This document shows positions 62,725 through 62,750 of a stretch of 64,000 nt of DNA, piece by piece. Under the pieces are notes generated by a model, which did no database searches, was not told the DNA's origin, and saw only the letters and a list, made by a program, of their open reading frames with translations. Both the position numbers and the translations under genes were made by a program. This DNA is from Escherichia coli (GTDB taxonomy: Bacteria; Pseudomonadota; Gammaproteobacteria; Enterobacterales; Enterobacteriaceae): NCBI RefSeq assembly GCF_017348835.2, contig NZ_CP071375.1. One strand, given 5' to 3'. How positions within the stretch are numbered: position 1 is the stretch's first letter; the number at the start of each line of letters is the position of its first letter.

Positions 62725-62750
<26 letters not shown>

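Follow-up and report, generated by a model that had tools for sequence, protein, structure and literature searches.

Two convergent genes for the breakdown of murein tripeptides meet tail to tail in the window, the 64,000-nucleotide stretch of Escherichia coli DNA that was analysed. On the plus strand, ycjG (61785–62750) encodes the L-Ala-D/L-Glu epimerase in 321 codons and ends in a TAG stop at 62748–62750, as given by the open reading frame, its translation, and RefSeq. On the minus strand, mpaA (62725–63453) encodes the murein tripeptide amidase in 242 codons, and translation and RefSeq place its TGA stop where the plus strand reads TCA, at 62725–62727. YcjG matches the NCBIfam equivalog NF011708 over 1–321 of 321 positions (E 1.6e-203) and is near-identical to PDB 1JPD across all 321 residues, every one of which is included in the crystal chain. 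MpaA matches the equivalog NF007897 over 1–236 of a 237-position model, and the deposited crystal chain of E. coli MpaA (PDB 5HXD) stops at D237. The functional link between the two genes that a preliminary description of this DNA had proposed is well founded, as MpaA and YcjG catalyse consecutive steps (PMC2954226). Both genes are also in the regulon of the repressor PgrR (PMC5934670).

From the sequence and translations, the coding ends share 26 nucleotides, 62725–62750, with both stop codons included. The shared stretch holds part of F314 through L321 of YcjG and the TAG stop on the plus strand, and part of P235 through S242 of MpaA and the TGA stop on the minus strand. Its positions 62728–62747 (20 nucleotides) are sense in both frames, specifying T315–L321 of YcjG and K236–S242 of MpaA. 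RefSeq annotates the identical 26-nucleotide overlap in strain PE164, in K-12 MG1655 (b1325/b1326), and in O157:H7. The overlap noted in the preliminary description is therefore confirmed by sequence, translations, and annotation, and its proviso that the canonical starts be used is immaterial, because an overlap of 3′ ends is set solely by reading frames and stops. The pair represents convergent overlapping coding genes, with products from two equivalog-level families with solved structures and stops that lie 26 nucleotides past each other. The overlap is already known from current E. coli annotations. Because the coding ends overlap, any mRNA for either full-length protein reaches at least 23 nucleotides into the other gene.

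Of 5426 complete E. coli genomes, 5414 carry the ycjG-mpaA junction, and RefSeq also annotates the 26 nucleotides in those sampled E. coli junctions that diverge most. Both frames stay open as far as the annotated stops in all E. coli that were examined. Bases 61600–63700 of the window are 100% identical to strain PE164, and over 221 nucleotides around the junction the window differs from K-12 at only two positions, neither of them inside the overlap, where all 26 nucleotides are identical. Among the nine annotated convergent pairs of the window, two overlap in coding sequence, ymiD/pdeR by 19 nucleotides and ycjG/mpaA by 26, and the remaining seven are separated by gaps of 43–130 nucleotides. 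In the PE164 annotation, ymiD (10386–10514, plus strand) and pdeR (10496–12481, minus strand) have 10496–10514 in common.

For a comparison across genera, species-representative genomes were scanned with an alignment of MpaA and the best 80 loci were taken. Of the 31 Enterobacterales loci among these, 27 have a convergent YcjG homologue directly downstream of mpaA, an adjacency that also occurs in Microbulbifer and Vibrio. The coding sequences overlap in 24 of the 27 Enterobacterales pairs, by 4, 10, 19, 21, 26, or 29 nucleotides. The commonest state is 10 nucleotides, seen in eleven genera or lineages that include Enterobacter, Kluyvera, and Pseudocitrobacter. An overlap of 4 nucleotides is found in Pluralibacter, Serratia, two Yersinia, and Mangrovibacter; the 26-nucleotide state is found in E. 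coli, E. albertii, and two Citrobacter; and Phytobacter, Erwinia, Pantoea, and one MAG have 19, 21, 26, or 29 nucleotides. The other three Enterobacterales pairs have gaps of 3 (Enterobacter Ag1), 9 (Hafnia), and 72 nucleotides (Acerihabitans), and the gap is 36 nucleotides in Microbulbifer and 160 in Vibrio. Since overlap lengths vary and gaps are few, it is the tight abutment that is conserved, not the length of the overlap. Four Enterobacterales loci have an mpaA homologue with no YcjG homologue within 3 kb (L024 and L029, Pectobacterium; L033, Erwinia psidii; L052, Erwinia endophytica), so some lineages have lost or rearranged the pairing. Salmonella and E. fergusonii have no locus among the best 80.

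The origin of the 26 nucleotides can be approached by aligning the junction sequences, anchored on the ycjG end. From the ycjG stop to the conserved Trp233 codon of mpaA there are 4 nucleotides in Escherichia and Citrobacter versus 5 in the genera with a 10-nucleotide overlap, so the mpaA frame is shifted in Escherichia and Citrobacter. In the window this spacer, the probable site of a 1-nucleotide indel, is at 62751–62754. The overlap lengths fall into matching frame classes, with 26 equal to 2 modulo 3 and 10, 4, and 19 equal to 1 modulo 3. The shifted mpaA frame continues for five codons more and adds five non-conserved residues. Parsimony over a few taxa suggests the direction of the indel. 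In Erwinia, Pantoea, Serratia, and Yersinia, YcjG is the lengthened partner instead. Loss of the older mpaA stop through a synonymous change in a Leu codon of ycjG was also considered and is rejected, because C. werkmanii keeps TCA at that site and the difference is a frame-changing indel of 1 nucleotide.

How far such an extension should run can be estimated from stop density. Past the older stop, the mpaA frame meets 14 stops in the 320 codons of antisense ycjG, giving a mean run of ~23 codons, compared with which the observed extension of 5 codons is on the short side. The 26-nucleotide overlap is thus ordinary and no more than chance expects. The variable tail of MpaA, the visible frame shift, the substitution pattern described below, and the 5-codon length all agree with a neutral 3′ extension.

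The two proteins differ in how much of their shared end is conserved. After the motif L-L-R-W, MpaA homologues carry 0–13 residues of unconserved sequence, and most are 235–239 residues long. Conservation extends to the end of YcjG, P-A-L-x-F-T-T-G-x-L-H-L, which its family models include. Within the overlap, codon position 3 of YcjG faces codon position 2 of MpaA, a register in which most substitutions are silent for YcjG and alter MpaA. Compared with E. albertii, the overlap has two substitutions, each of which leaves YcjG unchanged and alters MpaA. Compared with Citrobacter, 5 of 7 to 6 of 8 overlap substitutions are synonymous in YcjG when scored singly, and the 7–8 substitutions result in one change in YcjG (E318Q) and four to five in MpaA. 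In the MpaA frame, every substitution of the E. albertii and Citrobacter comparisons is non-synonymous except for one TGA-to-TAA change of the stop. Two polymorphisms within E. coli fall in the overlap; one gives S242L in MpaA and is silent in YcjG, and the other gives E318A in YcjG and I239M in MpaA. As judged by this substitution pattern, the shared bases are constrained in the YcjG frame only, with the MpaA tail a passenger on the YcjG C-terminus. The last five residues of MpaA are probably dispensable, given the extent of the crystallised chain and their non-conservation.

Searches for a terminator at the junction were negative. No terminator-like site was found at or near 62725–62750, and a scan of 61500–63800 returned three sites, the number expected from shuffled sequence. 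Neither between nor across the two 3′ ends is there a bidirectional intrinsic terminator, that is, a G+C-rich hairpin flanked by an A tract and a U tract. The local fold at the junction is not significant on either strand (z = +0.2 on the plus strand; z = −1.9 on the minus strand, with no U tract), and no Rfam family was found at the ycjG-mpaA locus. An ancestral bidirectional terminator was also sought in the longer spacers of Vibrio, Acerihabitans, and Microbulbifer, where a consensus scan found none. The sole Rfam hit of the window is the enterobacterial small RNA STnc180 at 1239–1441 on the plus strand (200 bits), which overlaps the small-protein gene ymiC (1312–1407).

Published RNA data for the locus come from K-12 under a few laboratory conditions, and the window is from another strain. 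In these data, ExcludonFinder lists 165 convergent excludons for MG1655, found in 50% or more of 58 RNA-seq samples, and ycjG-mpaA is among them (PMC12288877). Adams and colleagues report a Rho termination region on the plus strand at K-12 1390286, antisense to mpaA and ~391 nucleotides past the ycjG stop (PMC7815308). With an offset of 1327145, its peak in the ycjG read-through RNA is at window position 63141 (Rho score 3.94, p 7.2e-5; PMC7815308 Supplementary file 2), at the coarse resolution of a scoring that compares 800-nucleotide windows. Patches with more C than G on the plus strand at 62850–62950 and 63050–63250 fit this region. For ycjG itself, the 3′-end data sets of that study list neither a 3′ end nor a Rho region.

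Double-stranded RNA captured by p19 was measured by Huang and colleagues, who found 55–112 RPM for mpaA and 25–54 RPM for ycjG (PMC7373196); these six per-gene values in Table S1 are abundances of captured dsRNA, not expression levels. Two duplexes of ~21 bp within mpaA, at U00096.2 1388416–39 and 1388470–94 (PMC7373196 Table S3), fall within 63247–63325 when converted to the window. In the wild type, sense/antisense reads are 51.2/10.0 for ycjG and 73.9/17.6 for mpaA, placing antisense at ~20–24% of sense, and in single libraries of the rnc-14 and rnc-38 mutants the sense RNA of both genes is lower, not higher (PMC7373196). The excludon catalogue, the Rho region, and the dsRNA with its antisense reads all bear out the overlapping transcripts anticipated in the preliminary description. 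By this literature, and also by the coding overlap itself, ycjG and mpaA are opposite-strand neighbours with overlapping transcripts, and as such they are already catalogued. Such an arrangement is the norm, for of 370 convergent E. coli operons, 276 have overlapping 3′ ends (PMC4161252).

A published Term-seq 3′ end on the mpaA strand lies inside the mpaA reading frame, 39 nucleotides after the start codon, at K-12 1390559 or window ~63414. It sits just after the GC hairpin GCGCCGAACGCGGCGC, which is followed by AUUU; the local fold there is not significant (z = −1.0). This 3′ end could be an attenuator or a processing site.

On the far side of ycjG, tpx (61160–61666) is on the minus strand like mpaA, downstream of antisense ycjG, and is the third member of a published noncontiguous operon (PMC12288877). 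The tpx-ycjG pair is itself listed among the 16 divergent excludons of MG1655 (PMC12288877). The genes tyrR and tpx are convergent with a gap of only 43 nucleotides. The entire tpx coding sequence lies under S-116, which ranks within the top 20 E. coli dsRNA clusters by abundance in p19 capture and is attributed to plus-strand read-through from tyrR to ycjG (region 59575–61785). The genes pdeR-ymiD-yciZ form another of the three noncontiguous operons of MG1655, so that two of the three fall in this window. Upstream of mpaA, at 63744–64000 on the minus strand and continuing beyond the window, this strain has an intact gene for an SDR-family oxidoreductase. In PE164 the next genes after it encode alpha/beta hydrolases, one frameshifted and one intact, whereas K-12 has only the short remnants ymjC and ymjD before ycjY, so the make-up of the mpaA operon is not the same in all strains.

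Taken together, the locus is most likely a compact, terminator-less tail-to-tail junction of genes for murein-tripeptide breakdown, in which the coding overlap is a neutral by-product. From the comparison of genera, a 1-nucleotide indel just past the ycjG stop in an ancestor of Escherichia and Citrobacter would have shifted the mpaA frame beyond its older stop. MpaA would thereby have gained a C-terminal tail of five unconserved residues, encoded antisense to the conserved end of YcjG. On the evidence of the substitutions, selection on the shared bases acts via the YcjG frame, with the MpaA tail carried along. The junction leaves no space for a terminator, so each mRNA must enter the other gene. 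In the published data, ycjG read-through is stopped by Rho ~400 nucleotides inside antisense mpaA, mpaA-strand transcription goes on at a low level over antisense ycjG towards tpx, and the sense/antisense pairs yield some dsRNA processed by RNase III. The effect on expression is probably small. Some selection may act on the abutment, since nearly all of the sampled Enterobacterales retain it and since synteny is reported to be stronger for excludon pairs than for others (PMC12288877).

Regulation through the overlap is a less probable reading. A functional convergent excludon, in which polymerase collision and/or RNase III cleavage of duplexes reciprocally tunes mpaA and ycjG, would account for the pair's place in the catalogue of 165, the dsRNA over both genes with antisense at ~20% of sense reads, the absence of a terminator between them, and the abutment conserved across Enterobacterales, and it has a tested precedent in mscL-arfA (PMC10070815). 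It is nevertheless unlikely. Mutual exclusion makes little physiological sense for enzymes of consecutive steps that belong to one repressor's regulon, both genes are weakly expressed, so collisions would be rare, and neither sense RNA rises in the single rnc-14 and rnc-38 libraries. Moreover, overlap is found in three out of four convergent E. coli operons in any case, and the length of this overlap varies among lineages. Somewhat less probable again is that the terminator-less abutment has itself been selected, either for an MpaA:YcjG ratio set by read-through that Rho and RNase III limit, or for a noncontiguous operon that links murein-peptide catabolism to tpx.

Such an operon, taken as an explanation in its own right, would have mpaA and tpx co-transcribed on the minus strand over antisense ycjG, one RNA both expressing tpx and silencing ycjG. 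Only three noncontiguous operons are reported for MG1655, with mpaA-ycjG-tpx among them (PMC12288877, Table 1), a minus-strand operon of Conway, as quoted in PMC7373196 Table S1, runs from inside mpaA to beyond tpx (1386028–1388177, U00096.2), and the 3′-end data assign neither a Rho region nor a 3′ end to ycjG. The read counts speak against it; tpx has ~9 times the sense reads of mpaA, and antisense ycjG reads are at ~11% of the mpaA level per nucleotide (PMC7373196), so read-through adds little to tpx. The operon call is also coverage-based, which makes one long RNA indistinguishable from overlapping independent RNAs, and a competing proposal explains the dsRNA cluster S-116 by plus-strand read-through from tyrR to ycjG. 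This explanation is accordingly very unlikely. An annotation artefact, with one C-terminus not translated to its annotated stop and hence no true coding overlap, may be suspected from the MpaA crystal chain that ends at D237 and the family model of 237 positions. The chance of this is negligible, for both frames are open throughout E. coli and the YcjG crystal chain has all 321 residues. Even if MpaA ended at D237, 2 of its sense codons and a stop would still fall within ycjG, and no stop exists there. The neutral origin of the overlap at a compact junction remains the preferred explanation.

The significance of the locus is small, given that the overlap is annotated and the transcript overlap is published. 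What is added here is an evolutionary account of the 26 nucleotides through a 1-nucleotide frame shift in the Escherichia/Citrobacter lineage, evidence for constraint in the YcjG frame only, and a collation of scattered transcript data. If regulation through the overlap were true, it would be an unusual excludon, linking consecutive, cooperating enzymes instead of antagonistic functions; current evidence points elsewhere.

Among known systems, the junction resembles the convergent excludons of E. coli (PMC12288877), a concept that comes from Listeria, in having opposite neighbours with overlapping 3′ transcript ends, and is itself one of those catalogued. It departs from the concept of mutually exclusive expression in that its products cooperate in one pathway. 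The mscL-arfA pair (PMC10070815) is likewise tail to tail, with an overlap of 3′ coding sequence or 3′ UTR, and its spacing varies in Enterobacterales from overlapping to proximal. For mscL-arfA, antisense regulation is established by deletion and complementation, with a defined stem-loop cleaved by RNase III (PMC10070815), and nothing equivalent is detectable at ycjG-mpaA. As in the noncontiguous operons, the first of which was menE-menC-MW1733-ytkD of S. aureus, ycjG is flanked by the same-strand genes mpaA and tpx and antisense transcription is reported; unlike in them, tpx has its own, far stronger expression, and the mpaA-tpx calls are coverage-based. The bicyclomycin-sensitive plus-strand region past the ycjG stop, antisense to mpaA, agrees with the clearing of antisense read-through by Rho (PMC7815308), and it is one of very many ‘antisense’ regions in that table, with nothing distinctive about it.

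Another close parallel is the model of Kingsford, Delcher, and Salzberg (2007), cited in PMC3887535 as explaining convergent overlap lengths generally by random 3′ extension to the next stop. The ycjG-mpaA event differs from the model in being a 1-nucleotide indel in a 4–5-nucleotide spacer, not a point mutation of a stop codon, and in that YcjG is the extended partner in Erwinia, Pantoea, Serratia, and Yersinia. Like the overlaps described by the model, that of ycjG and mpaA is short, varies in length by lineage, has an unconserved extension, and fits the antisense stop density, and related genera show the characteristic 4-nucleotide (TTAA/CTAA-type) and 10-nucleotide states.
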